Source of the DNA: a virus
Taxonomy: Duplodnaviria > Caudoviricetes
Strand: one strand, 5' to 3'
IMG/VR virus record: IMGVR_UViG_3300036795_000069
Location: 1-51,570 of that record
Length of the DNA stretch: 51,570 nt
Shown here: positions 21,573 to 49,415 of the stretch, one piece after another
How positions within the stretch are numbered: the first letter of the stretch is position 1
Layout: every line of letters begins with the position of its first letter
Notes under the pieces: generated by a model
What the model saw: only the letters and a program-made list of their open reading frames with translations
Database searches by the model: none
Told to the model about the DNA's origin: nothing
Program-made: the position numbers and the translations under genes

Positions 21573-21666
21573 GTCTCTACGATGTCTAACCTAGTGAGAT
21601 CGCATAGAGACGCTAATCGTCCTCGAAGCTTCACATTGTGGTAAGCAAGGTCTAATTTCGAATCTC
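21573..21666 (+). repeat. 94-bp phased conserved element, copy 1
   Basis: GTCTC-N6-GTCTAAC-N3-GTGAGAT-N6-GAGAC-N3-AATCGTC-N-TCGA-N18-GCAAGGT-N8-GAATCTC. Confidence 0.85.
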
Positions 21667-21680
21667 TTTGAGGGAGAGAT

Positions 21681-22061
21681 ATGCCCAGGGCTACAGCACA
21701 GATCAGCGACTTGGTCCACAAGGACCTCAACACGTTGCCAGAAGGTTACGTCAAGCTTCGCAGGATGACCTATGGTCAGAAGCTTCAGCGGCAGCAGATG
21801 GCCATGAAGATGATGATGTCAGGCGACTCCAAGACCAAGGAGATGCAGGGCGAGATGGCCTTCGTCAATGCCTACGCTACGGCGTGGTCATTCGGCGTGT
21901 GTGTCGCGGAGCACAACCTGGAAGACGAGAACGGCAAGTCGCTGGACATGAACAACATGAAGGATGTCCAGCGACTTGATCCTCGCGTTGGTGAGGAGAT
22001 CGACACCTACATCAACGAACTGAACAACTACGAGGAGCAGCAGACCGAAGAGGGAAACTAG
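21681..22061 (+). CDS. Tail assembly chaperone (gpG equivalent)
   Basis: Lies between the tail tube and TMP genes; ends in a slippery site. Confidence 0.85.
   Translation: MPRATAQISDLVHKDLNTLPEGYVKLRRMTYGQKLQRQQMAMKMMMSGDSKTKEMQGEMAFVNAYATAWSFGVCVAEHNLEDENGKSLDMNNMKDVQRLDPRVGEEIDTYINELNNYEEQQTEEGN
22052..22058 (+). other. -1 programmed frameshift site G GGA AAC
   Basis: The -1 frame is open into the 22085..22273 ORF. Confidence 0.85.
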
Positions 22062-22273
22062 AAGGCCGGGTTCGTGCAACAATATTGATGAACCGTGATC
22101 CTGATGATGAAGTACGGTTTGCCATCGAGATGACGCAGCTTTGTCAGGCATTAAATTGTTTGCCAGGACCCGGCGGTCTCCTTCAGCAGGACTCGTACTA
22201 CGTTTGGATGATGCAAATCGTCCTTCACGCGGAGGCCGAGAAGGCTCAACGTGAACAGGAGAGGAAGAAGTAG
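22052..22273 (+). CDS. Frameshifted chaperone extension (gpGT equivalent)
   Basis: LPGPGGLLQQD motif; in the -1 frame from the slippery site. Confidence 0.8.
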   Translation, partial: GKLEGRVRATILMNRDPDDEVRFAIEMTQLCQALNCLPGPGGLLQQDSYYVWMMQIVLHAEAEKAQREQERKK

Positions 22274-25200
22274 ATGTCACTAGGGTCTCGCGAGATGCTA
22301 CTGATCATCCGTGCACGGGATGAAGCGTCCAAGGTTCTCGCGGGACTCGGTGCTAACATGGCTGTCGTCGATGCTGAGACGAAGCAAGCAGCCACATCTA
22401 CACGTGCTCACGGCGCTGCACTAACCACAATCGGCGCCGTGAGCACAGTGGTAGGTGTTAAGCTTGCCAAGTTCTATACTGACTCGGCTAATATGGCTGT
22501 CAAGTACAACAACGAGGCCGCTCGTACGTTGACTCAGGTTGATCAAGCTGGTGTGAAGGTTTCCGATCTGGCAGCCATCGCAGAACGTGTCGGCAATAAG
22601 ATTCCTGCACCGTTCGAAGAGATGCAGTCGTCACTATACGACATCTTCTCCTCTATGGACGTGAACACCAAGCAGTCAGAAGCACTCCTAACAACCTTCT
22701 CCAAGGCAGCAGTTGCTGGCCAATTCGATCTACAGGGCGCTGCTCGTGGATCGATCGGTATCATGAACGCCTTCGGCTTGAGTGTCAAGGATGCTGGACA
22801 CGTTGAAGACGTGATGTTCGAGTTGACCAAGAAGGGTGTCGGTACCTACGGCGACTTCACCAGTGCCATTGGTAGGGCTACCCCGTCAGCTGTGAAGGCT
22901 GGTCAGAGCTACGAAGAGCTCGCAGGCATGATGGCATTCTTGACTCGTAACGGTCTAAGCACTGCAAGTGCCTCTGCGTCAGCTGCTCGTGCGTTGGATG
23001 CTATGTCCAACCCAGCGACTGAGGCTCACATGAAGGACTTGGGCCTCACAGTCAAGAACGCTCAGGGCCAGTTCAAGCCAATGACGCAGATCATCCAGGA
23101 GATGTCCGACAAGCTCAAGGGTATGACTAAGCCTGAGCAGGCCGAGGCATTGAAGGACATCTTCAAGGGCTCTGGCGGTACTATTCAGGCGATGCGGTTC
23201 TTCAACGTCGCCATGACTCAGACTGGTCAGTACACCAAGCTCACATCTGACATAGTCAATAACTCTTCAGGTCAGATGGATAAGGCCTACAAGATCATGT
23301 TCAAGCAGCCGCAGACTCAAATGCAGCTCCTGAACAACCAGTGGAAGATCATGCGGACGGAGTTGGGTGAAGCTTTCATTCCGTCGGTGAATAAGCTTAT
23401 CGCAGTCGGTTCAAAGCTTCTTGGCTGGTTCAACAATCTGTCTCCGCACACCAAGAGGCTCATTGCCGAGATTGGTCTGATCACTGCTGCACTCCTGATC
23501 TTCGGTGGCATCATCATGGTCATCGTAGGAACATTCCTAATCTTCAGTGCGGCAGCTGCTACTGCAGGTATTGGTCTTGGAGCAATCGCCCTTACTATTG
23601 GTGTTGTCATTCTCGCAGTTGCTGCTCTGGGTGCTGCAGTATACTTCATCATCAAGTACTGGGGTCCGATCACAGACTTCTTCAAGGCGTTGTGGAAAGA
23701 TGTCAAGGCTATCTTCTGGGATGCTTACAATTGGGTGATGACAACTGGCTTGGCTTGGATCAAGCAGTACATTGGTATGCTCCAGACTCTCTGGGACTGG
23801 CTAGTTACCAACACCGAGGCAGCGTGGACTACTGTTGAAGGTGCATTCACAACTGCATATGACTCTGTCCTTAGCTTCACCTCCGCGTTCTGGGACGATG
23901 TTAAGAAGTACTGGAGCGACGGTGTATCGGCAGTAGAAGGTTTCTTTAGTCCCATCACTCAGTGGTTCCAGTCGCACTGGGATGAGATTAAACAAGTCTT
24001 CTGGGTCGCAGAGCAGGTTATCGCCGATGGTTTAAGGACCATGTGGGCGATCCTAGTAGCCATGTGGACGTTGGAATTCGCAGTCATCAAGGCTGGCGTT
24101 ATAGTCACATGGGACATCATCAAGACTGTATTCTCAATCGCCTGGGCAGCCATCGTCATGGTTACCAAGCAGGCCTGGGATATTATCTCGACGTACTTCA
24201 AGATCTCCTGGGCTATTATCGTTGCGGCCACTACGTTGGCTTGGGACGCTATAGTCCTCATCTTCAAGGTCAGCCTCGCTATCCTTGAAGCGGTCGTGAA
24301 GATCGCCTGGGATGCGATCATCCTGATCTGGAAGATTGCATGGGATACTGCAGTTGCCATTGTCAAGGCCGTCTGGGTTGTCATCTCGGGCGAAGTCAAG
24401 ATAGCTCTTAACCTCCTGGCACTGATCTTCGGTGTCGCTCTTGACCTCATTACAGGTCACTGGAGCAAGGCTTGGGATGACATTAAGAAGTATGGCCTTG
24501 CAATCCTTAACGACTTCATTGCCATCTTCAAGAGCCTGTGGAACATCTTCGTTAACTGGTTTGCCGGATCGCTAGCAGCTATCCTCCAGTTCTTCACGAA
24601 CTCGTTCAAGGCCATCTGGGATGCTGGTAAGACCATCTTCAAGGCCTTCATCACGTGGCTCAAGGATAACTGGACCACTCTGTGGAACACCATGAAGACT
24701 ATCCTCTCCGATGGTTGGAGTGGACTCAGCAGCTTCTTCAAGAACGGCTTCAAGGGCCTTAAGACCATCTGGGATACCTTCTGGGGTGGTCTGTCGAAGA
24801 CGTTCACTGATATGTGGACAGGCATCAAGAGTGTAGCCACTGCTGCATGGTCTGGACTGAAGGGCATCTTCACTGCAGGTGCCAACGATGTTCGGGACGT
24901 GTTGAACTGGTTTATCGACGCCGTCAACAAGATCCCTGGTGTACCGAACATCCCGAAGATTCCGAAGTTCGGTGGTGGCGGAAGTAGTAAGAACACTAAG
25001 CAGCAGCTTGGCGGAACCGTAGTAAAGAAGGGTAACACCGTCGGCGAGAACGCCATGGGTGGCGGAATTGCTGGAGGATCTTGGTCGTGGGTTGGTGAGC
25101 GTGGTCCTGAGCTTATTCACGTCACCAAGGGTCAGTCGGCGATGGTGTACAACGCCCAGAAGTCCTTGCAGATGGCTCAGCGCGTTGGTATGCCAAACAT

Positions 25201-26044
25201 TGGTAACCACGCACTCGGCGGCATCATTGGGTCGATCGGATCTACGGTCAAGAAGGGTGCAGAGAAGGCTGTAGACATTGGCAAGGCAGGTCTTCAGAAG
25301 GCTGAGTCGCTCGCCCTCAAGCCTGCTGACGCTGCTCTAAGTTGGGCACTCCACCACTTCATTCCGAAGGGTGGAATGTTCCTCGACGTTGCCAAGAACC
25401 TCGCAGGCAAGATTCGTCAGAACGCCGTCAACGCTTTGAAGGGTGTTCTAGGTGTAGGTAGTGGCTCGGGCAACGGTGGTGGCTCTGGACATGGTGACAT
25501 GTCTGCACATAGTGCCTCTGCCGCTAAGGCTCAGGCGTACGCCAAGACGTTGCTCGGATCGTTTGGCTGGGGAACCAACCAGATGTCGAGCCTCATCTCC
25601 CTGTGGAACGGGGAGTCCGGTTGGAACAACCTGGCAGCGAACCCGACCTCTACGGCGTTCGGTATCGCGCAGTTCCTGAACGGCACCTGGGCTGGGAAGA
25701 AGTTCCCGAAGACGACGAACTACATGCAACAGATCTTCGACGGCATGCAGTACATCAAGGGTTCATACGGGAACCCCTCGAATGCCTTCAGTCAATGGTC
25801 TGCACGATCGCCTCACTGGTATGACAATGGCGGTCTCTGGTACCCAGGCACGATGGGTATGAACCAGCAGTCGAAGGGTAGTAAGCCGGAGAAGGTTCTC
25901 ACAGACGAGCAGTTCGAGGACATGCACGAGTTGGCTCAGCGTGGCATGTCTGGTGGTCAGACGATCAACGTGTACACTCAGGAAATCAACCCGATCAAGC
26001 ATGCAGCCGATCTCGGATGGGAACTGCAGAGGAGGGTAGGATAA
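22274..26044 (+). CDS. Tape measure protein with a C-terminal lytic transglycosylase domain
   Basis: 1256 aa; Trp-spaced ~11-aa repeats; ESGWN..A.NP.S.A.GIAQFL SLT motif. Confidence 0.95.
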   Translation: MSLGSREMLLIIRARDEASKVLAGLGANMAVVDAETKQAATSTRAHGAALTTIGAVSTVVGVKLAKFYTDSANMAVKYNNEAARTLTQVDQAGVKVSDLAAIAERVGNKIPAPFEEMQSSLYDIFSSMDVNTKQSEALLTTFSKAAVAGQFDLQGAARGSIGIMNAFGLSVKDAGHVEDVMFELTKKGVGTYGDFTSAIGRATPSAVKAGQSYEELAGMMAFLTRNGLSTASASASAARALDAMSNPATEAHMKDLGLTVKNAQGQFKPMTQIIQEMSDKLKGMTKPEQAEALKDIFKGSGGTIQAMRFFNVAMTQTGQYTKLTSDIVNNSSGQMDKAYKIMFKQPQTQMQLLNNQWKIMRTELGEAFIPSVNKLIAVGSKLLGWFNNLSPHTKRLIAEIGLITAALLIFGGIIMVIVGTFLIFSAAAATAGIGLGAIALTIGVVILAVAALGAAVYFIIKYWGPITDFFKALWKDVKAIFWDAYNWVMTTGLAWIKQYIGMLQTLWDWLVTNTEAAWTTVEGAFTTAYDSVLSFTSAFWDDVKKYWSDGVSAVEGFFSPITQWFQSHWDEIKQVFWVAEQVIADGLRTMWAILVAMWTLEFAVIKAGVIVTWDIIKTVFSIAWAAIVMVTKQAWDIISTYFKISWAIIVAATTLAWDAIVLIFKVSLAILEAVVKIAWDAIILIWKIAWDTAVAIVKAVWVVISGEVKIALNLLALIFGVALDLITGHWSKAWDDIKKYGLAILNDFIAIFKSLWNIFVNWFAGSLAAILQFFTNSFKAIWDAGKTIFKAFITWLKDNWTTLWNTMKTILSDGWSGLSSFFKNGFKGLKTIWDTFWGGLSKTFTDMWTGIKSVATAAWSGLKGIFTAGANDVRDVLNWFIDAVNKIPGVPNIPKIPKFGGGGSSKNTKQQLGGTVVKKGNTVGENAMGGGIAGGSWSWVGERGPELIHVTKGQSAMVYNAQKSLQMAQRVGMPNIGNHALGGIIGSIGSTVKKGAEKAVDIGKAGLQKAESLALKPADAALSWALHHFIPKGGMFLDVAKNLAGKIRQNAVNALKGVLGVGSGSGNGGGSGHGDMSAHSASAAKAQAYAKTLLGSFGWGTNQMSSLISLWNGESGWNNLAANPTSTAFGIAQFLNGTWAGKKFPKTTNYMQQIFDGMQYIKGSYGNPSNAFSQWSARSPHWYDNGGLWYPGTMGMNQQSKGSKPEKVLTDEQFEDMHELAQRGMSGGQTINVYTQEINPIKHAADLGWELQRRVG

Positions 26045-26941
26045 ATGACCGCTCCAGCTCTGGACATCTTCGCCTTTCAGTTCCGTGACGACGGCGTGCC
26101 TCTCAACGTTGACGATATCAGTATTCCGTTCGTCGACATCACAAGTGTCACTGGTCTTGACAATGCTCCATTCCGTCAGACCACTCAGGACCGTGAAGGT
26201 ATGGATGGGGGGTATGTCGATGCAGAGTTTGAGACACTTCGAACAATTGTACTCGCTGGCAACGTCTATGGGACTGACAACGTTCTTGAGACGTATCTTA
26301 ATCAGCTTAAGGCGAACTTTGCACCGAGCAGGAATGCCTACCCCTTCTACTTCCGTACAGCTGATGGAGGACAAAAAGTCCTCTACTGCAAGTCCGGAGG
26401 ATGTAAGTACGACTGGACTCAGACCAGAAGAACTAACGTAGTAGCCATCCAGTTCACGCTGATGGCAGAGGACCCAACGATCTACGATCCTGACCTTATC
26501 ACGGCAACAAAGGACCTTGCGCCGACGGTTATTACTGGTCGTGGATACGACAAGTCTTTCAACTACGGCTATGGTGGTGAGTCGACATCAGCTTCTGTCA
26601 TTATCACCAATACAGGCAACAAGCCTTCACCTGGCATCTTGTCGATCGCTGGACCTATCCACTCCGGGTTCTCCATCACAAATGATGCCGATCTGGACAA
26701 TGATGGTAATGCACGGATGATCATTATCAACCAGATCATCAATATCGGCGACGCATCAATCGACATTGACCTGCGTAAGAAGACCATCCTGCAAGGAACT
26801 ACCAACCGTCGTAATGCTATGACGCCTGACTCTCGATGGTGGATGTTTCAACCAGGAGACAACAACATCAGGTTCCTGGGCGCTTCTGGCGGAGGTACAG
26901 GTCCTCTCTTGACCATCACGACACAATCGGCTTGGAGGTAA
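26045..26941 (+). CDS. Distal tail protein (Dit-like)
   Basis: Follows TMP; L.AEDP.IY, N.GN.P and PGDN.I motifs. Confidence 0.8.
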   Translation: MTAPALDIFAFQFRDDGVPLNVDDISIPFVDITSVTGLDNAPFRQTTQDREGMDGGYVDAEFETLRTIVLAGNVYGTDNVLETYLNQLKANFAPSRNAYPFYFRTADGGQKVLYCKSGGCKYDWTQTRRTNVVAIQFTLMAEDPTIYDPDLITATKDLAPTVITGRGYDKSFNYGYGGESTSASVIITNTGNKPSPGILSIAGPIHSGFSITNDADLDNDGNARMIIINQIINIGDASIDIDLRKKTILQGTTNRRNAMTPDSRWWMFQPGDNNIRFLGASGGGTGPLLTITTQSAWR

Positions 26942-26945
26942 GTTA

Positions 26946-28022
26946 ATGGCAATTCGCAACCCAGCCGGTTGGCTGCAGCTACGTGACGACCACACGTCTG
27001 AGAACGACCGTCTGATGATCAACTCCCTCTTGCAGGGAGATGGTAGCGGTGGCGGAGGAATGAACTTCAATGCGGGAGGTGTCCGTTATGACGACGGCAA
27101 CGCCTTCTGGGTGAAGCAAACCTCCACAGCAAGTATGAATGTCCAGATCACCCCTGGCATTGCATATGTGCTTGGTACACAGGGTGGTACACAAGGTCTG
27201 TACACAGTTATCAACGATGCTATCCTCTCGCAGGCTATTAACACAGCCGACCCGACAAACCCTCGAAGCGACATCGTCTTCGTACGTGTACAGGACGGCA
27301 ACTACTCGGGGACAGTGAATGCTGCCAGCATCGGCTACTCAGCAGGTACTCCTGGTGTAGGTGCTCCACCTCCCACAGCTCCTGCGAACAGCCTGGTCCT
27401 GGCTCAGATCTCGGTGCCAGCAGGTGCGTCGACAATCACCACAGCACGTATCACTGACAAGCGTCAGGCAGTCGTTGCAGCTGGTGGTGTTCTGCCGATT
27501 AGCCCTGCGAACGGGATGTCCTACCCGGGCGCCTTCGAGGGTCGTCTTGTCTACAACATGGACACCAACAAGCTTGAGGCGTACAACGGCTCGAGCTGGC
27601 AGAGTTCCGATCCCGTTATCATCTCAGGCAAGGGTGCTCCGAACGTTGGTATGAGTCCTGGCGATGACCACGACACGACGTTCAACATCACGATTCCTCG
27701 TGCAGGTCGCTTGCTGATGCAGGCACGTATTCACTTGAGGCTGTCGCAGGCTTCTGCAGGAGCGTCTTCGCACCAGGAGATGTTCTATGCAGGCGTCAGC
27801 ATGGATGCGCAGGATGTGTCTGTACCTCAGATCAACGCTGCAGGCACTACACACTTCAGCGTCTTCCTGCAAGGTACTCGGGACGTATCAGGGCCAGGAA
27901 CAGTAGCCATTATCCTCCGAGCCAACAACAGCATGGCGGTTGGTTCAGGTGGAGGTACCGTTCTTTACGTAGACTACAGCTTCTCGGCTACGCTGGGGGC
28001 TGCTGGTGCGGCGGTCTCATGA
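26946..28022 (+). CDS. Minor tail or baseplate protein
   Basis: MNVQITPG and ADPTNPRSD..LAQISVPAGA motifs typical of actinophage minor tail proteins. Confidence 0.8.
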   Translation: MAIRNPAGWLQLRDDHTSENDRLMINSLLQGDGSGGGGMNFNAGGVRYDDGNAFWVKQTSTASMNVQITPGIAYVLGTQGGTQGLYTVINDAILSQAINTADPTNPRSDIVFVRVQDGNYSGTVNAASIGYSAGTPGVGAPPPTAPANSLVLAQISVPAGASTITTARITDKRQAVVAAGGVLPISPANGMSYPGAFEGRLVYNMDTNKLEAYNGSSWQSSDPVIISGKGAPNVGMSPGDDHDTTFNITIPRAGRLLMQARIHLRLSQASAGASSHQEMFYAGVSMDAQDVSVPQINAAGTTHFSVFLQGTRDVSGPGTVAIILRANNSMAVGSGGGTVLYVDYSFSATLGAAGAAVS

Positions 28023-29137
28023 GTGGCGAAGTCACGTACATCTTCGCCGACCTACTCACGAACGAGATCCTCGGCGAGATGTCTTTGTTCGGTACGTACT
28101 TTGAGAAGTACGTCAATAACACTGGCAACTGCAACTTCTCGTACAAGCTTGGTCAAGGTGGTACATTCGACAGCCAACTTGACGATCGTCTTGCTCTACA
28201 GTGCACGATCCCGGGTAGGACTGCACTGTACGTTGACCGAGATGGAGAACTCGTATGGGGTGGCATTCTCTGGTCGAGGACATACCAGTCACAAGCGAAG
28301 ACAGTGTCATGTACAGCCCAGACGTTCGAGTCCTACTTTGCTCACAGAGTCGCGCACCTGAATGCCCTGTACGTAGCTAGTGTACATTGGGACCAGCGTA
28401 ACCTAGTTGCCGATCTGATCATGAAGATGGCAGCTGAGTACAGCGACGGATCGTCTGACCTTGGCTTCATCTTGCCTGATACATTCCCTACTGAGGTGGA
28501 ACGTACACTAAATGTGTGGGCTTATAACTTTGGCCTCTACAGCGACTTCATCAGTGGTGTGTACCAGCTAGACGATGGCTTCGACTTTATGGCAGATGTT
28601 GCCTATCTGGGTGGAGCGCCACGTAGGTTCATCTACATGGGCTATCCGAACCTGGGTGACCCTACAGGTGATCCTAACATGACAACGTTCGACTACCCTG
28701 GACCGATCGCTAACTACTACTGGCCCGAGACAGCTTCTGCAGGAGCTAACAACGCCTGGTCAGTAGGTGCGGGAGATGGTACAAAGAAGATCTTCGGCAA
28801 CGCTGTTGATACTCCGTCACTTGCAGCTGGGTATCCTCGACTGGACATCGTGAACAGCTACACGGATGTTACTCGTCAGCCTACGATCGACGCACATGCC
28901 GCTTCTGACCTAGCTGCAGCGCTCGTTCCGAACTCCGTTCCTTCGATCACCCTGAACCCTCAGGACTTTGGCTTCAACGGATTACAGGTCGGTACGTACG
29001 CTCGCTTGGTCATCGAAGATGTTCGTTTCCCAGATGGTTTCGACACTGAGATCAAGGTCAATGGTTGGCAGTGGACTCCGAAGTCCTCTTCAGGGTCTGA
29101 GACAGTAAACCTTGTCATTGCAGGAGCAGACCAGTGA
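28019..29137 (+). CDS. Minor tail hub protein (Gp37-like)
   Basis: RDGELVWGGILW, GFDF and GYPRLD motifs. Confidence 0.8.
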   Translation: MSGEVTYIFADLLTNEILGEMSLFGTYFEKYVNNTGNCNFSYKLGQGGTFDSQLDDRLALQCTIPGRTALYVDRDGELVWGGILWSRTYQSQAKTVSCTAQTFESYFAHRVAHLNALYVASVHWDQRNLVADLIMKMAAEYSDGSSDLGFILPDTFPTEVERTLNVWAYNFGLYSDFISGVYQLDDGFDFMADVAYLGGAPRRFIYMGYPNLGDPTGDPNMTTFDYPGPIANYYWPETASAGANNAWSVGAGDGTKKIFGNAVDTPSLAAGYPRLDIVNSYTDVTRQPTIDAHAASDLAAALVPNSVPSITLNPQDFGFNGLQVGTYARLVIEDVRFPDGFDTEIKVNGWQWTPKSSSGSETVNLVIAGADQ

Positions 29138-29337
29138 CAACTTACAACAAGCCACCAGACATTATCCAGGAGCTTATCGACCTGAAGGCCAGAGTCCGTA
29201 AGCTGGAGACAACGTCGCCGATCATCTATTCGATCGGTACAGCTGACACTGGGTCCCTCACGATCGACCTCGTCACAGGTAACCTCATCTTCACTGACAA
29301 GAACGGGCACTCGACTACGGTCGTCACTTCGACCTAG
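29134..29337 (+). CDS. Small tail-associated coiled-coil protein
   Basis: LKARVRKLET; GTGA overlap. Confidence 0.7.
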   Translation: MTTYNKPPDIIQELIDLKARVRKLETTSPIIYSIGTADTGSLTIDLVTGNLIFTDKNGHSTTVVTST

Positions 29338-29349
29338 TCTACACAGACG

Positions 29350-31239: not shown

Positions 31240-31240
31240 T

Positions 31241-41486: not shown

Positions 41487-41945
41487 CTACGGGAGGAGGC
41501 TGTTGCTGGCAACCACCGGAGCGCCAGCGGACTTCACACCGTCGATCGGGTAGTAGCTCTTGACCTCGTTCGACTCGTCGACCTCACGGCCATCGTCCAG
41601 CGTACGAGCGGGACGCTTGTTGACCTTGACAATCAGATCCTTGCCGATGAGGTCGTCGAGCTCGAACTCCATCTCGCCCTCGGCGTCGTAGCCGACGGCC
41701 TGCAGGATGCCCTTGATGCTGAACAGGGCGTGGGGAAGCAACGAAGCCATCCCGAACACCTTGCGGTTGTTGTAGTCGCCCTCCTGAACGGTGTACTCGA
41801 AGTTGATGTAGTCCGAGCCAGGGTTCTTCGAGGCAGGTCCCGACTGCTTGATCTCGGCGTCGGTGATCTTGACGTGGTACTTGCCCGTGGGAATCGGGTC
41901 GAAGTTACGGACTTCTACGTCGGTGAAATTAACCTTGAGCGGCAT
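41487..41945 (-). CDS. DUF669-like ssDNA-binding protein
   Basis: PIPTGKYHVKI and DLIGK...V motifs; next to the AAA recombinase. Confidence 0.8.
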   Translation of the reverse strand: MPLKVNFTDVEVRNFDPIPTGKYHVKITDAEIKQSGPASKNPGSDYINFEYTVQEGDYNNRKVFGMASLLPHALFSIKGILQAVGYDAEGEMEFELDDLIGKDLIVKVNKRPARTLDDGREVDESNEVKSYYPIDGVKSAGAPVVASNSLLP

Positions 41946-42790: not shown

Positions 42791-42801
42791 CTAAATGGTT
42801 G

Positions 42802-42894
42802 TGGACTCACCCGGAGTCGAACCGGGATCTCTACACGCTGCAAGCTGGGGGTCTAGCTGGCTGTGTAGGCTCTTCCTATCTGAGCTATGAGTCC
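42802..42894 (-). ncRNA. tRNA-like RNA with an expanded 26-nt anticodon loop
   Basis: Acceptor GGACTCA/TGAGTCC; D-arm GCTC-AGATAGGAA-GAGC; stem TACAC/GTGTA; T-arm CCCGG-TTCGACT-CCGGG. Confidence 0.8.
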
Positions 42895-42989
42895 TAGGCT
42901 GAGCGGAGCCCGTACGGCATGTGGACAGGTTGTCCGCTCAGCTCTTCCTAGGTAGGTGTCCGCACAGAGCTACCGTTCGGAAGCTTGTG

Positions 42990-43670
42990 TTACTGGATGG
43001 CGATCGGGAAGGTCGCCGTCGCCTGACCATCAGCGGTCGTCACAGTTGCAGAGACCACCGCATCCGAGTTGGAGCTGAGTGCCTTGAACACGAACGTGTC
43101 ACCCTTGTCGGTGTGAGCGAAGTCCGTGTAGTCGAAGGACGCCTCTCCCGCACCCAGCGAGCTCTGCGTGGCACTGCCATCGCCATTGCTCACCAGGCTG
43201 AAGTCGTCAGGGTTCCACGACAACGTGATGGTCCCGTTGACCTGCGGGTTCGCCTGCATCGCCGTGACGGTCAGAGGCGCGTTGTCTCCGACAGCGACCG
43301 AGGTAACTGGAACGTTGTTCGTGGAGTCCCAACCCCAGCCGCCGCTTCCGCCGTTGCCCGAAGCTCCCGGCGCACCGTCGATGGCGAGTCCCTTGACGCT
43401 GGTGCGAACGCTCTCCTGAAGCGCATCGACACCTTCGCCCCAGTAGACCTTGTTGGCCCACGCGTTGCAGCCCGGGTACGTGTTGGTGCCATCGTACTCG
43501 TAGAAGCGACCACCGACCAGACCGTTCGTCGCTGGGTTGACACAGCCCCAGACGATCGGAGAGGTGGTGCTGGCGTGGATGGACTGTGATGCGTCAGCGG
43601 AACCCGTGAGACCGAAGGCGGTCAGGAATCCAGCTGCTGCGATACTGCCAAGAATTTTCTTGCCGTGCAT
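42990..43670 (-). CDS. Secreted or surface protein with a Sec signal peptide
   Basis: MHGKKILG...GSADA signal peptide; Cys pair; Gly-rich linker; beta-rich C-domain. Confidence 0.8.
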   Translation of the reverse strand: MHGKKILGSIAAAGFLTAFGLTGSADASQSIHASTTSPIVWGCVNPATNGLVGGRFYEYDGTNTYPGCNAWANKVYWGEGVDALQESVRTSVKGLAIDGAPGASGNGGSGGWGWDSTNNVPVTSVAVGDNAPLTVTAMQANPQVNGTITLSWNPDDFSLVSNGDGSATQSSLGAGEASFDYTDFAHTDKGDTFVFKALSSNSDAVVSATVTTADGQATATFPIAIQ

Positions 43671-43827
43671 TGTACCCTCCCAGGTATGTTTTTAGCTTGT
43701 CGCGCCTGTGGTGTTTTGTCAGAGCGTGCCCCATGCACCTGACGTGTCTCGACCCGTAACATTCTCTGGTCCTATACTCGAGACGCCCCACGTGTCCTGG
43801 ACTAGACCCAGGTGAATCCATCACGCG

Positions 43828-45039
43828 TCATGTTGCTACCCTCCCTCTATGTTCGGTCGATGCCACGTTGGCCTCGCGGACCCAGTAGTGGTGCTCGCGT
43901 TGGTCGTACAAAGTCTTGAGGGTGTACTGGTAATCTTCGCCCATGTTCACGCCCAGGCAGGGCTGACGGAATGCACAGAACTTGCAACTGAAGCGGCCTG
44001 GGTTCGGATAGATCGGTAGGCCAGGATCTACGATGTCCTTGGACTCTGTGTAGATGACCTTGCCGATCTCGATGAGTTCGTTCTGGTTCTTGTGAATCTG
44101 GTACCGGTGATAGAACTGAGGTCCTTCAGCCTGCAACCAGTCCAGGAAGTCGTCGTAGTATCCACCGTTGAAGCCGAGCTTGTCGTGCTCTCGTACGTGT
44201 GCCAGGTAGGTTGGATAGTCGACGTCTTGGTTCTTACTGACGCTGAACAGACATCCTAGTCGCCGTTGCTTGTTCTTCTTCGGCGGTCCCGGGAAGCCCT
44301 TCTTCTGCTCATGGTAGACGAAGCCTCTGATAGGCAGTCCGAGTACCTTGCCTAGCGCCCATGGGTATGAGCCTACTTGGTCGTCGAGCTGGAGGAACTC
44401 GTCGTCGTCGACACTGAGTCGGGCTGCTGTCTTCCAGTCGAAGATCCAGTAGTCCCCGTGGTCGTCTTCGCCGAGCATGTCAACTCGTCCTGCGAACACG
44501 ACGCCATTGTCTTCTGGACTGTGCTGACGGCAGTTAGGTAGTTGACAACGAAGCTGGATGCCTGTCTCCGGATCCACGACAGGAACCTCGAAGCTAAGCT
44601 CGACTTTGACTGGTCGAAATCCAAAGTCTGTTCCGACGACCTGCTGCGCATAGTACGCCAACATCCCTTGACCAAGCGCCAGACGTTCGTCATAGTCCGC
44701 CTGTACCTCGTCTTCCAAGTAAGGAATTGCCTCTTGGGTAAGGAAGGCCTTACGCTGCTTCTCGCAGGTCTCGACGAACGCCTTCTGGGCGAACGCGATC
44801 TTGATGTGGATTGGGAAGTCCCACCGAGCTGGGTCGTAGAACGCTTCCATCCCGTTGTGATAGGCTACACCGAACTCCAGCGGCTTGGCTGTGACCTTCG
44901 GGTACCAGTTGTCGCGGAAGATCCAATGCCAGCGACGTCTACACCCACGGAATGATTTCCGTTCGGATGTGTGAACTTCATGCGGCACGACTTGCCCCCT
45001 CACCCATGCAATAAGCTTGGTGATATGTTGTGCGATCAC
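43828..45039 (-). CDS. Cas4/RecB-like PD-(D/E)XK exonuclease
   Basis: FRGCRRRW, GRVD..IFDWKT and CKFCAFRQPC (Fe-S); probably leaderless. Confidence 0.88.
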   Translation of the reverse strand: MIAQHITKLIAWVRGQVVPHEVHTSERKSFRGCRRRWHWIFRDNWYPKVTAKPLEFGVAYHNGMEAFYDPARWDFPIHIKIAFAQKAFVETCEKQRKAFLTQEAIPYLEDEVQADYDERLALGQGMLAYYAQQVVGTDFGFRPVKVELSFEVPVVDPETGIQLRCQLPNCRQHSPEDNGVVFAGRVDMLGEDDHGDYWIFDWKTAARLSVDDDEFLQLDDQVGSYPWALGKVLGLPIRGFVYHEQKKGFPGPPKKNKQRRLGCLFSVSKNQDVDYPTYLAHVREHDKLGFNGGYYDDFLDWLQAEGPQFYHRYQIHKNQNELIEIGKVIYTESKDIVDPGLPIYPNPGRFSCKFCAFRQPCLGVNMGEDYQYTLKTLYDQREHHYWVREANVASTEHRGRVAT

Positions 45040-45044
45040 CAATA

Positions 45045-45074
45045 ATTATATCACCAGTGATCTCACTGCCACAA
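45045..45074 (-). promoter_or_regulatory. SigA-like promoter with a palindromic operator in the spacer
   Basis: C-TTGTGG-N18-TATAAT; spacer contains CAGTGA-GA-TCACTG. Confidence 0.75.
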
Positions 45075-45107
45075 GGTGAATTTATATACGAACGCTTTGA
45101 CGCTGGA

Positions 45108-45416
45108 TCAAGACTCCACAGGAAGTGGTTCACTAGACGTGATGTTCACGTTGCAGCCCTTACAACCTGCCTTGTCGCATAGGGTGCAGTAGAATAGGGC
45201 TACCCTGAGGCGTTCTAGATCCTCCTGGCACACCTTGTAGGTCGCGATGTGCTCGTGGACACAGCCGCCAGTGACCAGATGGGTCGCTTCTCCCATGCAG
45301 TTCATGAAGTTGAAGCAGTACTTCCCCTCCTTATCGCCTGAAGTGAACTCTAGGATGGACCTGAGATCCTGAATAGTAACTTCTTTGAAGTCCGGTATTT
45401 CACCCATCGTTGTCAT
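45108..45416 (-). CDS. Cys-rich hypothetical protein
   Basis: Multiple CxxC/CxH motifs; overlaps the upstream gene. Confidence 0.65.
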   Translation of the reverse strand: MTTMGEIPDFKEVTIQDLRSILEFTSGDKEGKYCFNFMNCMGEATHLVTGGCVHEHIATYKVCQEDLERLRVALFYCTLCDKAGCKGCNVNITSSEPLPVES

Positions 45417-45726
45417 CCCTTCCGTAACGCTTGGTGTGGCGGAGGCCCTTCATTGAGTTACGTTCCGACTTCGTGAGCATGGGATACGGAGGATCCATGA
45501 TCGCCATGATGGCCTGATGAGCGTCGAGGAACACTGGACAGTCGAGACCATCCCTGGTGCAGCGTCTGTACTTGCACGTCTTCTCGGGACAGCTCTTGAC
45601 GGCCTGTTCAGCCATCTTCAGTGCTGCCTGACGGAGAGTAACAGGATCGATGTCGTGATCCCCTGCCAGAATGGAGGCATCGGGATCCTTCTCGGCCTTG
45701 CCGTTCCTCATACGCGGTGAGGTCAT
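45400..45726 (-). CDS. Hypothetical protein with a Cys cluster
   Basis: ATGA overlap. Confidence 0.65.
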   Translation of the reverse strand: MTSPRMRNGKAEKDPDASILAGDHDIDPVTLRQAALKMAEQAVKSCPEKTCKYRRCTRDGLDCPVFLDAHQAIMAIMDPPYPMLTKSERNSMKGLRHTKRYGRDDNDG

Positions 45727-46256
45727 CGCTTGAGACTCGCCGACACCGCCGAGGCGATCAGGTTGGCAGCGTTGTCTCGTACTGCGTTGATGACGTCCTG
45801 ACGAGCCTTGTTGATGAGGGGCTGAAGCTCCTTCACCATCGACTGGTTCACCTGGTCCTGAAGTAGACCGTTGAACGAGGGAGCACTGCTGCGGTTGCTA
45901 TAGCTCTCCTTGCCAGGGCGCGTAAGGAAGGCCCTGGTCTCGTCCATGATCAGCTCTCGCAAGGTCGTCTCCTTGCCCAGCTTCTGACCGTAACCAGTGG
46001 TGAGCTGGAAGGGCTCGTTCAGAGCCTCGGCGATGTGCGAGGAGATCTGACTCTGGATCGTCTCAGTGACGGTGCTGATGATCTGCTGCTTGACCTCGCG
46101 GTCCATCTGCTGCATGAGTTGGGCGACTGCACCTGCGACGATGGCCCCTCGAAGGTCGACAGAGTAGCCTGCAACGCCTACCGAATAGTCACCCTCGTCT
46201 TCGTCCAGCACGGTGCCAAGGTTGATCTTGACAACCAGGTCTTCAGACCTCGCCAT
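45723..46256 (-). CDS. Hypothetical helical protein
   Basis: GGGAG RBS. Confidence 0.75.
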   Translation of the reverse strand: MARSEDLVVKINLGTVLDEDEGDYSVGVAGYSVDLRGAIVAGAVAQLMQQMDREVKQQIISTVTETIQSQISSHIAEALNEPFQLTTGYGQKLGKETTLRELIMDETRAFLTRPGKESYSNRSSAPSFNGLLQDQVNQSMVKELQPLINKARQDVINAVRDNAANLIASAVSASLKR

Positions 46257-46665
46257 TGCTTACGCTCCCTGTGGTGTTGTTCAAAGCCGTCTTAGCAGCC
46301 TCAAGTGTCGGATTACGGTAGTCACCATCGCCACGGTACTCTGGAGCGACTTCGGTCTTCGGAAGCAGGTTCTTGCCGATCGCAGCGAACCAGTGCTCCC
46401 CATCTGCCCATGCGCGAGTCGGCTTACCGCAGACTGCACATACCCACCAGCCGTACTTACGGCCTCGAGTCCAACCAGCGAGCTTACCCCGATGCTTGTC
46501 CGAGTTGTCACAGTACAGGGTTGGCTTCTTGTAGACCGCACGTACGTCGGCCTTGACGATAGCTGTGTCGCCACTGATGTGAATGTACTGCGCATCCACT
46601 ACGTACTCAGTGAAGGCGTCTGCCTCAGCATCGTTGTCGAAGGAGAGCAATACGTACTTAGCCAC
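46243..46665 (-). CDS. Hypothetical protein (MAK-family N-domain plus Zn ribbon)
   Basis: MAKYVLLSFDNDAEADAF; WVCAVCGKP. Confidence 0.75.
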   Translation of the reverse strand: MAKYVLLSFDNDAEADAFTEYVVDAQYIHISGDTAIVKADVRAVYKKPTLYCDNSDKHRGKLAGWTRGRKYGWWVCAVCGKPTRAWADGEHWFAAIGKNLLPKTEVAPEYRGDGDYRNPTLEAAKTALNNTTGSVSNGEV

Positions 46666-46837
46666 GTTCCACCATCAGCTTTCTGCCAGGCCTGACATCT
46701 TGGATGTCGTAGTACACTCGACGCACACCTTGCCTACGTGTGCTGTTGCTAGGTACTATGACATACTCTTTGATGTTGTCGATGAGGGAGTTGGCTTGGG
46801 CATCGTCATCGATCCTGATGGTGACGATCTTAGCCAT
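46658..46837 (-). CDS. 59-aa MAK-family protein
   Basis: GGGGAG RBS; MAKIVTIRIDDDAQANSL; read by eye. Confidence 0.65.
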   Translation of the reverse strand: MAKIVTIRIDDDAQANSLIDNIKEYVIVPSNSTRRQGVRRVYYDIQDVRPGRKLMVERG

Positions 46838-47022
46838 CAGGTACTCCCCGCCGCTTCTTGTGCATGCTCCAGCGTGTTCAGGAGGTCCTTGTCCGAGTAC
46901 GGTAGGCCTCCTGGCAGCTTTAGTGCCGTGTCAGTGGCTAGCTGAAGTAGACGACGACACTCAGCGGGCGAAAGGAACAAGTGGATCACCGGCTCCTTAC
47001 GTTCCACCTCATAGGTAGCCAT
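46837..47022 (-). CDS. Hypothetical protein
   Basis: TGATG coupling at both ends. Confidence 0.65.
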   Translation of the reverse strand: MATYEVERKEPVIHLFLSPAECRRLLQLATDTALKLPGGLPYSDKDLLNTLEHAQEAAGST

Positions 47023-47282
47023 CAGTTCTCGTCCCACGGTCGTACTGCAAGTTCACCTTCGCCTCGAACACCTGGCGGGTACGTCGATGCGCTCGTTACT
47101 GTGTGTAGCTCGTCGTTGACCTTGTGCAGTACACGAAGTAGGTGGTCGTAGCCGTTGGCTTCCGCTCCTAGACCATTTGAGAGCTTGTCGTGTGACTCGT
47201 TAGCCAGGGCGTACAGCAACTCGAACTCCTCCTGCGCCAGCTCCAGAGTGACCAGGATGGTCTTCTTAACCCCGAACTGCAT
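47022..47282 (-). CDS. Hypothetical protein
   Basis: AAGGAG RBS. Confidence 0.7.
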   Translation of the reverse strand: MQFGVKKTILVTLELAQEEFELLYALANESHDKLSNGLGAEANGYDHLLRVLHKVNDELHTVTSASTYPPGVRGEGELAVRPWDEN

Positions 47283-47469
47283 CGGAAGTCTCCTTCTTGC
47301 GATCGGCCATGACGTCGATGCCCCTCTTGAACGAGGTGACGATCGCTGCTGGCACTACACAGTCGCCGAGCGGTCCATCGACAATGGTCTGGTTTGAATC
47401 GTTCACCGTGGCGATGAAGCGATCAGCATCCTTGTCGGTCTCGAAGTAGACCGTGACGCACTTAGCCAT
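47266..47469 (-). CDS. 67-aa MAK-family protein
   Basis: MAKCVTVYFETDKDADRF; AAGGA RBS. Confidence 0.7.
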   Translation of the reverse strand: MAKCVTVYFETDKDADRFIATVNDSNQTIVDGPLGDCVVPAAIVTSFKRGIDVMADRKKETSDAVRG

Positions 47470-47789
47470 CAGTCCTTCACCGCCGACAAGTGCTCGTTGA
47501 GCCTGCGCTCCTCTTCCAGCAGCGCGTGGTACTTGCGGTTACGAACGATCTTCTCCAGCTCCTCACGGTTCTTCGGCCGCTTGATCGACATGCTGGAGAA
47601 CTCGAACGAGATGGTCAGGCCGAGTAGAGTGGCCAGTTCAGCGAACAGAGTGTGTGCTCCGTTCGGAATGTTCTCGTCACCCATCTTTCCGTTCAGGGTG
47701 GCAATGATCTCGAGCGAGTTCCACTCGTCGAGTGCGAGTGCCGCAATCTCCTCATCGGAGACCTCGATTTCGTCCTTGTTGATCGTCAT
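47469..47789 (-). CDS. Hypothetical protein
   Basis: GAGGAG RBS; ATGA overlap. Confidence 0.7.
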   Translation of the reverse strand: MTINKDEIEVSDEEIAALALDEWNSLEIIATLNGKMGDENIPNGAHTLFAELATLLGLTISFEFSSMSIKRPKNREELEKIVRNRKYHALLEEERRLNEHLSAVKD

Positions 47790-48034
47790 GCGGATGTCTC
47801 CTCGAGCTTGGGGTGGAGTGGCTTGATGTTGAGGGTGTCGTCGTTGATGTCGCACGCGGAGTCGATGAAGGCGAATACGTCGTTGACATCATCGCTGACC
47901 AGACCGTACTTCTCGTAGGCGATCCGCTGACCGTAGAAGCCGATGTTGTTGGGCGGCTCTTCGATGGGCATCGCCACGCCGTCGAACTCCTCGTGCTCGT
48001 GAGTCCGTGGCTTGAGGTTCAGGTGCAGTTTCAT
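47786..48034 (-). CDS. Hypothetical protein
   Basis: AAGGGG RBS; ATGA overlap. Confidence 0.7.
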   Translation of the reverse strand: MKLHLNLKPRTHEHEEFDGVAMPIEEPPNNIGFYGQRIAYEKYGLVSDDVNDVFAFIDSACDINDDTLNIKPLHPKLEETSA

Positions 48035-48123
48035 CGGTAGTGATTCCCCTTCTTAAGGGTTAGTCCACATCGCTTGCAGACCTTAGTTCCGAAGATCGGA
48101 TAGAACACGTGGATGCTCTTCAC
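48031..48123 (-). CDS. 30-aa His/Cys peptide
   Basis: GGAGGA RBS; MKSIHVFYPIFGTKVCKRCGLTLKKGNHYR. Confidence 0.55.
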   Translation of the reverse strand: MKSIHVFYPIFGTKVCKRCGLTLKKGNHYR

Positions 48124-48161
48124 GTTTCCTCCGGGTTGGCAGATGTTTTCCTTCTACGACT

Positions 48162-48191
48162 ATTATATCACAGCGCCCTCTAGCCTCACAA
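48162..48191 (-). promoter_or_regulatory. SigA-like early promoter
   Basis: GGTC-TTGTGA-N18-(TGA)TATAAT. Confidence 0.8.
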
Positions 48192-48194
48192 GAC

Positions 48195-48401
48195 CTAAAC
48201 GGCGGTATCCTCGAAGTTTTCTTTGAGGCTCACCGGATAGAAGTCGTGCTTGATCCCTGCACACTTCTCGCCGTGCTTGTGGTGGTGGATGATCGTCTCA
48301 CCTGCGCCGCGCTTGTCGACGAGACGCTCTTGTGCCTCTTCCTGAAGCTTGTTCAGGTTGATCGTCTTGTCGTCTCCGGCGTACGTGTTGTGTAGGCTCA
48401 T
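48195..48401 (-). CDS. His-rich hypothetical protein
   Basis: GGAGG RBS; IHHHKHGEKC. Confidence 0.65.
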   Translation of the reverse strand: MSLHNTYAGDDKTINLNKLQEEAQERLVDKRGAGETIIHHHKHGEKCAGIKHDFYPVSLKENFEDTAV

Positions 48402-48700
48402 CGTAGGTTAATGCCTCCAGGCATAGTATGCGGAGACGATCAAGATCATCCCCAGAAAGATCCACATGACTGTCATCTTTGTTTACCACCAGAAATCATT
48501 CCAGATACGTCTCATCAAGGACATCACCGGATTTCGGGCATATCCAGAGAATGACAAAACACTGATTGCGACGTTCGTAGGAGGTTTGGACTTTTTCGAT
48601 ACGTCCCTGGCTCTTATTGTATGGATGGCGTTGACCACAGCGCCGACAATACACGCCGACGCTGACGTCACCGATGCTAGGAGGGGCCCATCCACTGCCA

Positions 48701-48997
48701 TTATGCTTCTTCCTCCTCCGCCATTTCGGGTTCCACGTATGGATCTGGGGGTTCTCTGACGGCGTCTGCCTCGGCGATGTCGATGACGGATCGTCCACAG
48801 ACACACATCTCCTTCTTGAGCTTCCCAGTCCTGATCCAGTAGTACACCATCTGTGGCTTGATGCCATGTGTCTTGGCGTACTCGATCGGCGACGCCTTGC
48901 TCTGCTCGGCGATTCGGTCCTCGAGCTCGTCCTGCTCCATCTGGGCGAAGAGCTCGTCAGTGGTCAGTGCTGGTATACCAGTGGACTTGTCGTCCAT
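48701..48997 (-). CDS. Xis/MerR-like HTH DNA-binding protein
   Basis: SPIEYAKTHGIKPQMVYYWIRTGKL...GR.VID. Confidence 0.75.
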   Translation of the reverse strand: MDDKSTGIPALTTDELFAQMEQDELEDRIAEQSKASPIEYAKTHGIKPQMVYYWIRTGKLKKEMCVCGRSVIDIAEADAVREPPDPYVEPEMAEEEEA

Positions 48998-49212
48998 GGC
49001 GCCCACGCTCCCACCGTGTCATCCTCATCGATCCAGAGGCTCTGAACTACTAGGCCACAGTTGATGCAGGTCGAGTTCGCCTTGTTGCCAGAGAAGGTGT
49101 ACGTGACCTGGTTGTCTTTCACCAGGTGACGATTGCCTGTCTCTGGGCACGTCTTGGCTTGGGCTCGTTGGGTCGCCCTGAACAACTGTGCGTCCGTGTA
49201 CTTGATGGTCAT
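48964..49212 (-). CDS. Zn-ribbon-like hypothetical protein
   Basis: CP....H, CINCG; follows the promoter at 49245. Confidence 0.65.
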   Translation of the reverse strand: MTIKYTDAQLFRATQRAQAKTCPETGNRHLVKDNQVTYTFSGNKANSTCINCGLVVQSLWIDEDDTVGAWAPWTTSPLVYQH

Positions 49213-49244
49213 GTCTATCAGCCTTTCGTTTGCCTGATAGATCA

Positions 49245-49273
49245 ATTATATAACACTAACCGTTTCATCTCAA
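49245..49273 (-). promoter_or_regulatory. SigA-like early promoter
   Basis: GGGC-TTGAGA-N17-TATAAT-T. Confidence 0.75.
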
Positions 49274-49321
49274 GCCCTTATCATAGGGTCCATTGAGAAA
49301 TTCTTTTTGGTGAGCGCTTAG

Positions 49322-49415
49322 GTCTCTAGCTCGTCTAACCGATTGAGATCCACATGAGACACAAATCGTCATCGATCTTACGTCTTACTGGGGTCGAGAT
49401 CTCTCTTTGAGTCTC
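49322..49415 (+). repeat. 94-bp phased conserved element, copy 3
   Basis: Aligns without gaps to copies 1 and 2. Confidence 0.85.

Follow-up and report, generated by a model that had tools for sequence, protein, structure and literature searches.

The window analysed here, a complete genome of 51,570 bp held as one whole IMG/VR virus record (IMGVR_UViG_3300036795_000069, hereafter W), raises the question of what is served by an element of about 100 bp that recurs at three dispersed positions between its genes. An earlier note on this DNA, made from the sequence alone, had described the copies as a 94-bp, ungapped and helically phased element, and had proposed for them either an activator-dependent promoter or a nucleoprotein organising site. 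Comparison with related phages gives good support to the view that the element is a real, conserved and phase-dependent protein-binding array on double-stranded DNA, with an output for which a proposal is made below. The sites, their phasing, conservation and genomic slots, and the absence of RNA signals, are direct observations; the elements most probably serve as platforms on which a DNA-binding protein of the phage docks where gene blocks meet.

A search of W with the 39-bp core of the element returned three exact matches, none with a mismatch, at 21573-21611 (+), 31201-31239 (-) and 49322-49360 (+), against a mean of 0.00 in 100 dinucleotide shuffles, and all three copies fall between open reading frames (ORFs), as had been claimed. 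This single-pattern scan covered the core; the 3' half of the element is supported by a MAFFT alignment of the three copies, which is gap-free across the element, bearing out the identical spacing reported earlier, and in which the downstream blocks AATCGTC-N-TCGA, KCRAGRT and GARTCTM are indeed invariant columns. The proposed extent of 94 bp falls short at the 5' end: TGAGC-N6 lies ahead of the first GTCTC in all copies, and the 11-bp register therefore begins one turn earlier, with the true 5' end some 11 bp farther out. The half copies mentioned in the earlier note are likewise present, GTCTM-N6-GTCTM giving six matches where 0.78 are expected, a number that none of 100 shuffles reached, at 63-78, at 5357-5372, in the three copies and at 51506-51521. 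These represent five distinct places, because bases 1-127 repeat 51444-51570 and the sites at 63-78 and 51506-51521 are thus a single site counted twice. Exact matches to AATCGTCNTCGA in W are limited to the three copies, and allowing one mismatch raises the count to six, against 1.12 expected.

Relatives were found by a search with the tail tube protein (33-55% identity), 80 of 90 relatives among metagenome contigs and 80 of 128 in IMG/VR being kept; eight related virus records were taken whole (G001-G008, which with W make up the nine compared genomes), and related contigs are given L-numbers. In a scan of 170 sequences (2.22 Mb) in which the 39-bp length was imposed, 20 distinct 39-bp palindromes with at least 19 of the 20 core bases were located, so that the element is present in related phages, and the reversed pattern gave no match in the same sequences. 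A variable-gap scan, which is independent of the fixed length, assigned 39 bp to 15 of 16 distinct elements and 40 bp to the remaining one. Many relatives have the same layout right after the tube gene, made of GTCTAAC/GTTAGAC; the W-specific 39-bp pattern had no match in IMG/VR. Eleven of 91 distinct tube/chaperone junctions of relatives contain the palindrome, and 15 more contain at least four half-sites within 330 nucleotides (nt), against 1.3 expected.

The palindrome has the form H-N6-H-N7-H'-N6-H', in which the half-site H is RTCTM and, at its best, GTCTAAC. The element is built of tandem pairs, in each of which the half-sites repeat with a period of 11 bp: two pairs placed head-to-head generate the palindrome, and a third stands at a phased distance from it. 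This auxiliary pair is separated from the palindrome by 38-40 or 50-51 bp, or by 52-54 bp when inverted, and the distances between the centres of palindrome and pair are 66-67.5 bp (n=10) or 77-78 bp (n=3) for a pair pointing away, and 80-82 bp (n=4) for a pair pointing toward the palindrome, in keeping with the conserved, helically phased spacing that had been proposed. The copies within W have GAGAT half-sites, N7 pairs and AATCGTCNTCGA in common, and GGAATC spacers are a lineage-specific detail of G002, G003 and L132; such details, common to the copies of one genome, fit co-evolution with a phage-encoded factor.

The positions of the elements are also conserved. Complete element-bearing relatives contain three to four elements each, in the same slots (four in G003 and four full elements in G002). 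Across the seven element-bearing genomes (W, G001-G005 and G008), slot d, between the tail tube and tail assembly chaperone genes, and slot c, between an HNH nuclease gene and a block with a RuvC-like resolvase gene, are both occupied in 7/7, slot c being degenerate in G005. Slot b, just past the 3' end of genes for proteins of 193 and 126 amino acids (aa), is occupied in W, G001, G002, G003 and G005; in G004 this region has only a near-palindrome and a pair, beside a homologue of W 48701-49006, and no slot-b element was seen in the stretch of G008 that was read. Slot a, upstream of the gene preceding the large terminase gene, is occupied in G002, G003 and G008, its counterpart in W being only the lone pair at 5357, ahead of the lysis/structural block. 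Late-type gene blocks begin after three of the four slots, and the fourth is next to an early promoter. G006 and G007 are without the 39-bp palindrome, and are not clean negatives because GTCTAAC clusters, differently arranged, remain in them at slot c and in the vicinity of slot b. In G006 a tandem 57-bp repeat (28750-28863, equivalent to L177 8750-8863) is found just upstream of the homologue of W_4724_5302, the position at which other relatives have the slot-a element.

In W, copy 1 (21562-21666, +) occupies slot d, following the tail tube gene and a 76-aa ORF and preceding the tail assembly chaperone gene, tube and chaperone having homologues in 9/9 genomes. It consists of TGAGC-N6 (21562-21572), the palindrome (21573-21611), a 38-bp spacer with AATCGTCCTCGA, and the pair GTCTA-N7-ATCTC (21650-21666), and an ATG follows at 21681, 14 nt past the end of the element. 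Copy 2 (31146-31250, -), at slot c, comprises TGAGC (31250-31246), the palindrome (31239-31201) and a degenerate auxiliary pair, GTATC-N7-GTCTA (31162-31146), with ACACCACAG downstream at 31124-31116 and then the ATG of a 58-aa ORF at 31105. A homologue of the HNH nuclease gene (31546-31863, -) lies immediately upstream of the slot-c element in all compared genomes, the palindrome starting at the HNH stop codon in G001, G003, G004 and G008, and a homologue of the last gene of the block downstream of copy 2 (29484-30008, -) lies after it in every one. The product of this last gene, a member of the database family phrog_1981 (unknown function), we take to be a RuvC-like resolvase on account of its ILSLDPG motif. 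Between it and copy 2 are two paralogous ORFs of about 105 aa each (30005-30325 and 30615-30929, -) with a Walker-A-like GxxGKTT, weak homologues of which are found in G006 and G007. In a diverged relative from one of three runs for which contigs were compared (X1-X3), namely X3, 21 nt replace the 102-aa ORF 31241-31549 (region 31242-31570) and HNH abuts the element; the break is at most 3 bp from the 5' edge of copy 2.

Copy 3 (49311-49415, +), at slot b beside a cluster of regulator-like genes, is antisense to the minus-strand genes that flank it and contains TGAGC (49311-49315), the palindrome (49322-49360) and the auxiliary pair ATCTC-N7-GTCTC (49399-49415), followed by ACACCACAG at 49437-49445; this last sequence is common to copies 2 and 3, in each exactly 21 nt past the last half-site and 3' end. 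Downstream of copy 3 on the plus strand (region 49463-49512), a 13-codon ORF (ATG 49463) overlaps a perfect 8-bp GC-rich hairpin (49489-49512), which also scores as a terminator for the minus-strand gene of the 126-aa protein. Of the two lone tandem pairs, GTCTC-N6-GTCTA (5357-5372, +) stands 13 nt ahead of the ATG at 5386 that opens the lysis/structural block, and GTCTC-N6-GTCTC (63-78, equivalent to 51506-51521, +) lies within the 127-bp terminal duplication, upstream, as read by eye, of a minus-strand TATAAT at 7-2. A (GTGTTG)n microsatellite (93-135) comes directly after this second pair.

Because an interrupted hairpin of 18 bp can be drawn from the palindrome, and because copies 1 and 2 lie in sense orientation just upstream of genes, the element might act as RNA, in the capacity of a leader, a processing signal or an antitermination signal. 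Pairing is, however, no better than in shuffled sequences: over the 20 distinct palindromes of W and its relatives 69.4% of cells are paired, as against 68.7% after column shuffling, and the covariation score was matched or exceeded by 81 of 500 shuffles. The N6 spacers, which the earlier note had judged not to pair, are unpaired in 10 to 16 of the 20 palindromes at each position, and at position 5/35, the fifth base of the symmetric half-sites, no more than 13 of 20 are complementary, with independent variation between G and A and between A and C. Fold stability is ordinary, with z-scores for the copies, on either strand, of -0.96 to +0.40, within one standard deviation of shuffles and not significant, and Rfam gave no match across the whole window at gathering thresholds and none at E<=1 around copy 3. 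Since covariation is absent, the spacers are unpaired and the fifth bases are independent, the symmetry of the palindrome is that of binding sites rather than of a helix; moreover its orientation relative to transcription is not kept, and spacing steps of about 11 bp, equivalent to one helical turn, are a property of double-stranded DNA. An RNA function is accordingly very improbable, and the earlier assignment of a DNA-level site is upheld.

With respect to transcription, the lone pair at 5357 in W points toward downstream genes, as do copies 1 and 2. A strong sigma-70-like promoter, TTGAGA-17-TATAAT (49245-49273, -), reads leftward beside copy 3, the start of whose palindrome is 49 bp upstream of the -35 hexamer. 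A search for RNA runs containing 21400-31300 gave none. Relatives without an element at slot d (L019, L037, L066/G007) have at that place a hairpin and then TTGCTT-17-TATAAT, and in L150 a strong hairpin lies directly ahead of the element, indicating that slot d is a point of transcription punctuation. As a separate observation, W has six strong promoters of the form TTGAnA-17/18-(TG)TATAAT (3147-3180, 36020-36053, 48162-48195, 49245-49273, 45045-45072 and 3450-3478), which have further sequence in common downstream of the -10 (repeat family D7) and are presumably early promoters for the host RNA polymerase.

The reading that we favour, tentatively and with a confidence that falls a little short of even, is that the array is an operator for a phage-encoded oligomeric regulator controlling transcription at gene-block borders, the binder and the transcriptional output being our proposal. 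Each copy is a composite array in which half-sites of 5-7 bp (RTCTM, at best GTCTAAC) make up three tandem pairs, each with an internal period of 11 bp, two of the pairs forming the fixed 39-bp palindrome by their head-to-head junction and the third lying a further few helical turns away on the same face of the DNA. A phage-encoded sequence-specific protein would contact one half-site with each DNA-binding domain and oligomerise over the three pairs, bending or wrapping some 95-105 bp of DNA. The resulting complex would punctuate transcription at gene-block borders, where it may switch on or gate the late blocks, i.e. lysis/structural (5357), chaperone/tape-measure (copy 1) and resolvase (copy 2), and may also act upon the early leftward promoter beside copy 3.

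The best candidate for such a binder is the 193-aa protein encoded beside copy 3 (49940-50521, -), which is conserved in 9/9 genomes and is predicted to have a winged helix at residues ~40-127 and, toward its C-terminus, a long helix (152-192) suggestive of a coiled coil. Its AF2 model (mean pLDDT 77.7) shows the winged helix and then a 40-residue helix, and VIA places it closest to the DNA-binding domain of the CRP-family protein CooA (Z 8.8, root-mean-square deviation 2.0 over 74 residues), followed by IscR, CRP, MarR and IclR-type regulators, with RepA_N (4pta) at Z 6.1. Foldseek places RepA_N initiator-DNA complexes on top (5kbj, E 2.5e-3; 4pql; 4pt7), with TM 0.33-0.47, and the atlas leads comprise HTH_36, RepA_N, PaaX and 'replication protein' clusters, all below 0.9 or with TM below 0.5; Pfam and PHROGs have no family for this protein. 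The second candidate is a 126-aa zinc ribbon protein (CxxC...CxxxxC; 49563-49943, -), whose gene ends about 150 nt from copy 3, and the third a 168-aa protein (50888-51394, -) with a small helix-helix-hairpin-helix core and a Lys/Ala-rich tail, for which Foldseek gave no meaningful match among solved folds; both are likewise found in 9/9 genomes. Sequence profiles of the three candidates, compared with the PDB, returned only coiled-coil or spurious matches.

Several observations weigh against this operator reading. The order of the parts at slot d is palindrome, about 40 bp, pair and gene in W, G002, G003 and several partial contigs, as opposed to pair, about 50 bp, palindrome and gene in G004, L135 and G008, and to pair, 52 bp and then an inside-out palindrome in G001. 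In W, G002 and G003 the slot-b (copy-3 type) element runs antisense to the co-directional genes on either side of it, the start codon of the next gene in G002 being only 27 nt from the palindrome, and no conserved -35/-10 pair was found at a fixed offset from the sites. As many as 65 of the 91 distinct tube/chaperone junctions have neither palindrome nor half-site cluster, and only 26 have either; because most junctions are of this empty kind, the element is the mark of a sub-clade and not of the whole group. All candidate binders occur also in G006 and G007, which have no 39-bp palindrome, and no protein family specific to the element-bearing genomes was found that would single out the binder. 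For the 193-aa protein, furthermore, the folds matched are generic winged helices, replication initiators among them. Two sets of candidates were tried and rejected: the element-specific clusters offered by phyletic profiling were shadow ORFs inside conserved genes, and W_29484_30008, considered as an element-tracking binder, is the RuvC-like resolvase and is present also in G007.

For the earlier proposal of an activator-dependent promoter pointing into downstream genes, these observations mean that it is not established, given that part order and orientation vary at the same slot, the slot-b element is antisense and a fixed -35/-10 is lacking. A consensus scan found no promoter inside copies 1-3, and inspection by eye of the 38-40-bp spacers for -35/-10 pairs, and for GGAAT-N17 motifs of the kind used by extracytoplasmic function (ECF) sigma factors, gave none that was consistent; in 11 of 15 elements, counted by eye, the final half-site has the -10-like sequence RA(G/A/T)TCT, which is suggestive only. 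That parts change order and orientation across the clade weakens the plain promoter reading, and the permuted order together with the antisense slot-b element speaks strongly against the half-sites as core promoter elements; combined with the lack of a conserved -35/-10, these features argue for an operator platform rather than a core promoter. The other proposal, that of a nucleoprotein organising site, fits as a description, whilst the process that it serves is one that we infer.

The insensitivity of the array to transcription orientation fits better with sites for a replisome organiser or other origin-binding protein than with a promoter, and in such a scheme, resembling oriL/oriR of phage SPP1, one copy would act as the origin, and the rest as barriers to forks or as secondary origins, leading to concatemer synthesis by recombination. 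SPP1 has two dispersed origins of similar organisation, with direct repeats bound by gp38 (PMC6316719 and PMC3485210, both in excerpt), and its late-region origin is proposed to stall forks, whose restart needs an exonuclease, an annealing protein, SSB and a Holliday-junction resolvase (PMC6316719, in excerpt). W has the same kit, in the form of a PD-(D/E)XK exonuclease, Sak4, an SSB-like protein and the RuvC-like resolvase; each element, with its six phased half-sites, is an array of initiator-binding-like repeats, and the RepA_N-DNA complexes ranked first by Foldseek and the HTH_36, RepA_N and 'replication protein' leads for the 193-aa protein point the same way. These initiator-like matches are weak, however, VIA ranking transcription-factor winged helices higher (CooA Z 8.8 versus RepA_N Z 6.1), and an adjacent AT-rich unwinding element is missing: between -120 and +160 bp the lowest-GC 30-mer has a GC fraction of 0.27-0.43 in 18 of 20 elements, mostly coincides with the half-site array itself, and falls to 0.20 in only one element. 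In addition, GC skew follows gene direction only, and three to four copies in fixed slots at gene borders look regulatory, so we consider replication sites an unlikely alternative, albeit the strongest of them. Somewhat less probable still is a composite of the two functions, in which one phage-encoded winged-helix/coiled-coil protein would form a hexamer-like wrapped complex on the three tandem pairs at each of the three to four sites, both gating early/late transcription and serving as an origin or fork barrier that triggers recombination-dependent concatemer synthesis; this dual role would explain the sites beside the HNH and RuvC-like genes and the late operons and, if true, would represent a single cis-code coupling replication mode to late expression in a large clade of uncultured soil siphoviruses.

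The remaining alternatives call upon other binders or other uses of the repeats. Boxes of the OmpR/PhoB type are tandem 7+4-bp direct repeats with an 11-bp period, and the phage might time its genes with a borrowed host protein, be it a nucleoid protein or a transcription factor, such as a response regulator that binds repeats of that period. The half-site GTCTAAC persists among phages, G006 and G007 included, that have no more than 45-55% identity in their core proteins, and no phage protein co-varies with presence of the element, both of which would suit such a factor; against this, when the palindrome in the form seen in relatives, as distinct from simple pairs, was sought in 596 Gb of genomes of bacteria and archaea, only two matches emerged, so that no host regulon of this architecture is visible, and drift common to all copies of one genome is easier to understand with a phage-encoded partner. 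A host factor is accordingly doubtful. One of the two matches is phage-like: L188, a 5.4-kb contig binned with a Pedobacter metagenome-assembled genome, contains a complete element at 3660-3760 (pair, 38 bp, palindrome) together with an ACCACAG motif, and is probably a related phage contig offering at best a weak hint of the host. We think it equally improbable that the element is a target for DNA processing, either as a nick or cleavage site for the HNH nuclease near slot c or as a pac-like array for the terminase small subunit. Some phages have a few fixed nick sites per genome, and pac sites may have phased repeats; the HNH gene abuts the slot-c element in all compared genomes, and slot a in G002, G003 and G008 is just upstream of the gene before the large terminase. 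A pac site is normally unique, however, in contrast to the multiple copies here, and the HNH gene is equally present in G006, which is without the palindrome. Least credible of all is a selfish or mobile repeat resembling miniature inverted-repeat transposable elements, or a group of sites at which recombination would invert the DNA between copies, even though one of the dispersed copies has the opposite orientation to the other two. The slots are orthologous across seven genomes, in phages down to 45-55% protein identity and with diverged spacers, from which we conclude that the copies are vertically inherited, and no transposase, integrase or invertase is found by PHROGs or Pfam. The statement in the earlier note that no recombinase is encoded is thus supported as regards integrases and invertases; the RuvC-like resolvase and HNH nuclease do flank the copy-2 slot. 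No inversion joint between copies was present in contigs of the three runs (X1-X3) over 31000-50000, rare events lying beyond what contigs register; contig pieces of X2 over this interval are identical and those of X3 too fragmentary for variation within copies 2 and 3 to be scored, X3 including a joint 49348>49451 with unknown letters between.

A second short motif, in the related forms CTGTGGTG, ACACCACAG and GTGTGGAG, is spread across the clade. There are 16 sites for CTGTGGTG in W (seven plus, nine minus) against about 0.8 expected per strand, among them 31116-31123, 46269-46276, 20327-20334 and 49438-49445, and most read ACACCACAG(GGAG) on the mRNA strand, 0-40 nt ahead of start codons; genes so preceded are those for the tube, at 10208, at 45723-46256 and probably FolE at ~36672. 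CTGTGGTG/C occurs 26 times in G001, and GTGTGGAG 14 times in G006 and 12 times in G007, often within hairpins.

By PHROGs and Pfam, W is the genome of a siphovirus, and a lytic one, with no integrase, repressor, invertase or transposase identified. Lysis and structural genes occupy the plus strand from ~5386 to 29337 (endolysin 6832, large terminase 12178, portal 13596, capsid 16901, tail tube 20349, tape measure 22274). Replication genes run on the minus strand from 49245 down to 29484 and include those for the exonuclease, Sak4, the SSB-like protein, a primase-helicase (39129-41372), QueC/D/E and FolE, DNA polymerase and HNH, and a short minus-strand operon with an SNF2 helicase spans the record ends (51394-49563 and 3095-139). 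GC skew over W gives no origin signal separate from gene direction. Bases 1-127 are identical to 51444-51570; 127 is a frequent largest word size of assemblers, and on these grounds this terminal repeat is read as the assembly overlap of a circular contig. Databases of isolated phages had no DNA match to W 20000-32000 or to the element, no protein match to the tail assembly chaperone, and capsid matches of at most 31% identity.

A 7-deazaguanine gene set (34401-39211, -), comprising QueC, QueD, QueE, FolE and a 256-aa protein (34401-35171) that is presumably DpdA-like, is kept in all nine compared genomes, and because of this conservation the guanines in the DNA of the clade, those of the GTCT half-sites included, are probably modified. 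Elsewhere in W, a sequence resembling the 3' half of a tRNA (repeat family D13) is present in two copies (3816-3874 and 4241-4268, -), one of which reaches 20.2 bits against the Rfam tRNA model, under the gathering score of 29, and ARAGORN reports a single odd 94-nt 'tRNA-???' at 42801-42894 (-). The ORF 4300-4587 (-) is conserved in eight genomes, as distinct from the longer plus-strand ORF opposite it (4198-4602), which is not.

Regulatory DNA of uncultured phages is almost never read, and here a complete cis-code, consisting of a half-site, a fixed 39-bp module, a phased auxiliary pair and three to four conserved slots, is legible from sequence in a clade known only from soil metagenomes. 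The elements mark the borders of temporal gene blocks in genomes in which most early genes are without annotation, and three small conserved proteins offer testable binders for a 105-bp substrate on which cooperative, phase-dependent binding can be assayed. Should the complex be a switch, it would provide a portable, phage-specific regulatory part; should it instead act as an origin or as a barrier to forks, the SPP1 model would gain a distant lineage.

We found no printed description of the element in a limited search of open-access text, a search with the half-site word yielding primers only, and its relation to known systems was therefore judged by comparison of features. GTCTAAC-N4-GTCTAAC has the 7+4 geometry of OmpR/PhoB boxes, a likeness that suggests head-to-tail binding by winged helices and serves as a lead only; here, by contrast, pairs are joined head-to-head as a palindrome, and Pfam detects no receiver or Trans_reg_C domain in W. 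The promoters activated by Mor and C of phage Mu and by Ogr of P2 also offer a handful of dyad-symmetric activator sites upstream of late operons. Ogr is a zinc protein of the pattern C-X2-C...C-X4-C, to which that of the 126-aa protein beside copy 3 is similar, and Pfam gives no Ogr_Delta or Mor match in W. The site bound by Mor consists of two inverted repeats, of 5 bp each, about a centre at -43.5 (PMC4390567, in excerpt). Such systems have a single dyad at a fixed distance and orientation to the -10, as opposed to six half-sites over about 95 bp in variable orientation. The SAS/ESAS repeats of Cluster K mycobacteriophages lie upstream of particular genes, are orthologous across the cluster and are described, in the excerpted account, as of unknown function (PMC3203893). 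They are akin to the present element, by analogy only, in being conserved repeats at orthologous genes, with ESAS forming imperfect inverted repeats, and differ from it in that ESAS has 17-bp inverted repeats with a 4-13-bp spacer, accompanied by a 13-bp SAS at the ribosome site, in many copies and one orientation (PMC3203893, in excerpt), unlike the fixed 39-bp four-site palindrome with a phased pair found here in three to four copies of variable orientation.

SPP1 resembles W in being a lytic siphovirus with dispersed repeat arrays for one phage protein, one of them among late genes (PMC6316719, in excerpt), but has an AT-rich unwinding element and two copies, with oriL inside the initiator gene, whereas the elements here number three to four and are without an AT-rich tract. 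In phi29, p4 sites 1-4 and p6 form one bent complex that represses early promoters and activates the late one (PMC3100819, in excerpt), and the likeness consists in several phased sites for a small phage protein that builds a single bent nucleoprotein complex. The p4 inverted repeat has a 15-bp spacer (PMC1904284, in excerpt), and phi29 has a single switch region in contrast to three to four dispersed copies; no p4 or p6 homologue was found in W by PHROGs or Pfam. Because sequence, geometry and copy number differ, and defining features that were looked for, such as the AT-rich unwinding element of SPP1, were not found, the element belongs to none of the phi29, SPP1 and SAS/ESAS systems. We rate it a phage operator or iteron array, one that resembles, in outline, the early-late switch of phi29 or the gp38 arrays of SPP1 and, in its genomic behaviour, the ESAS repeats.

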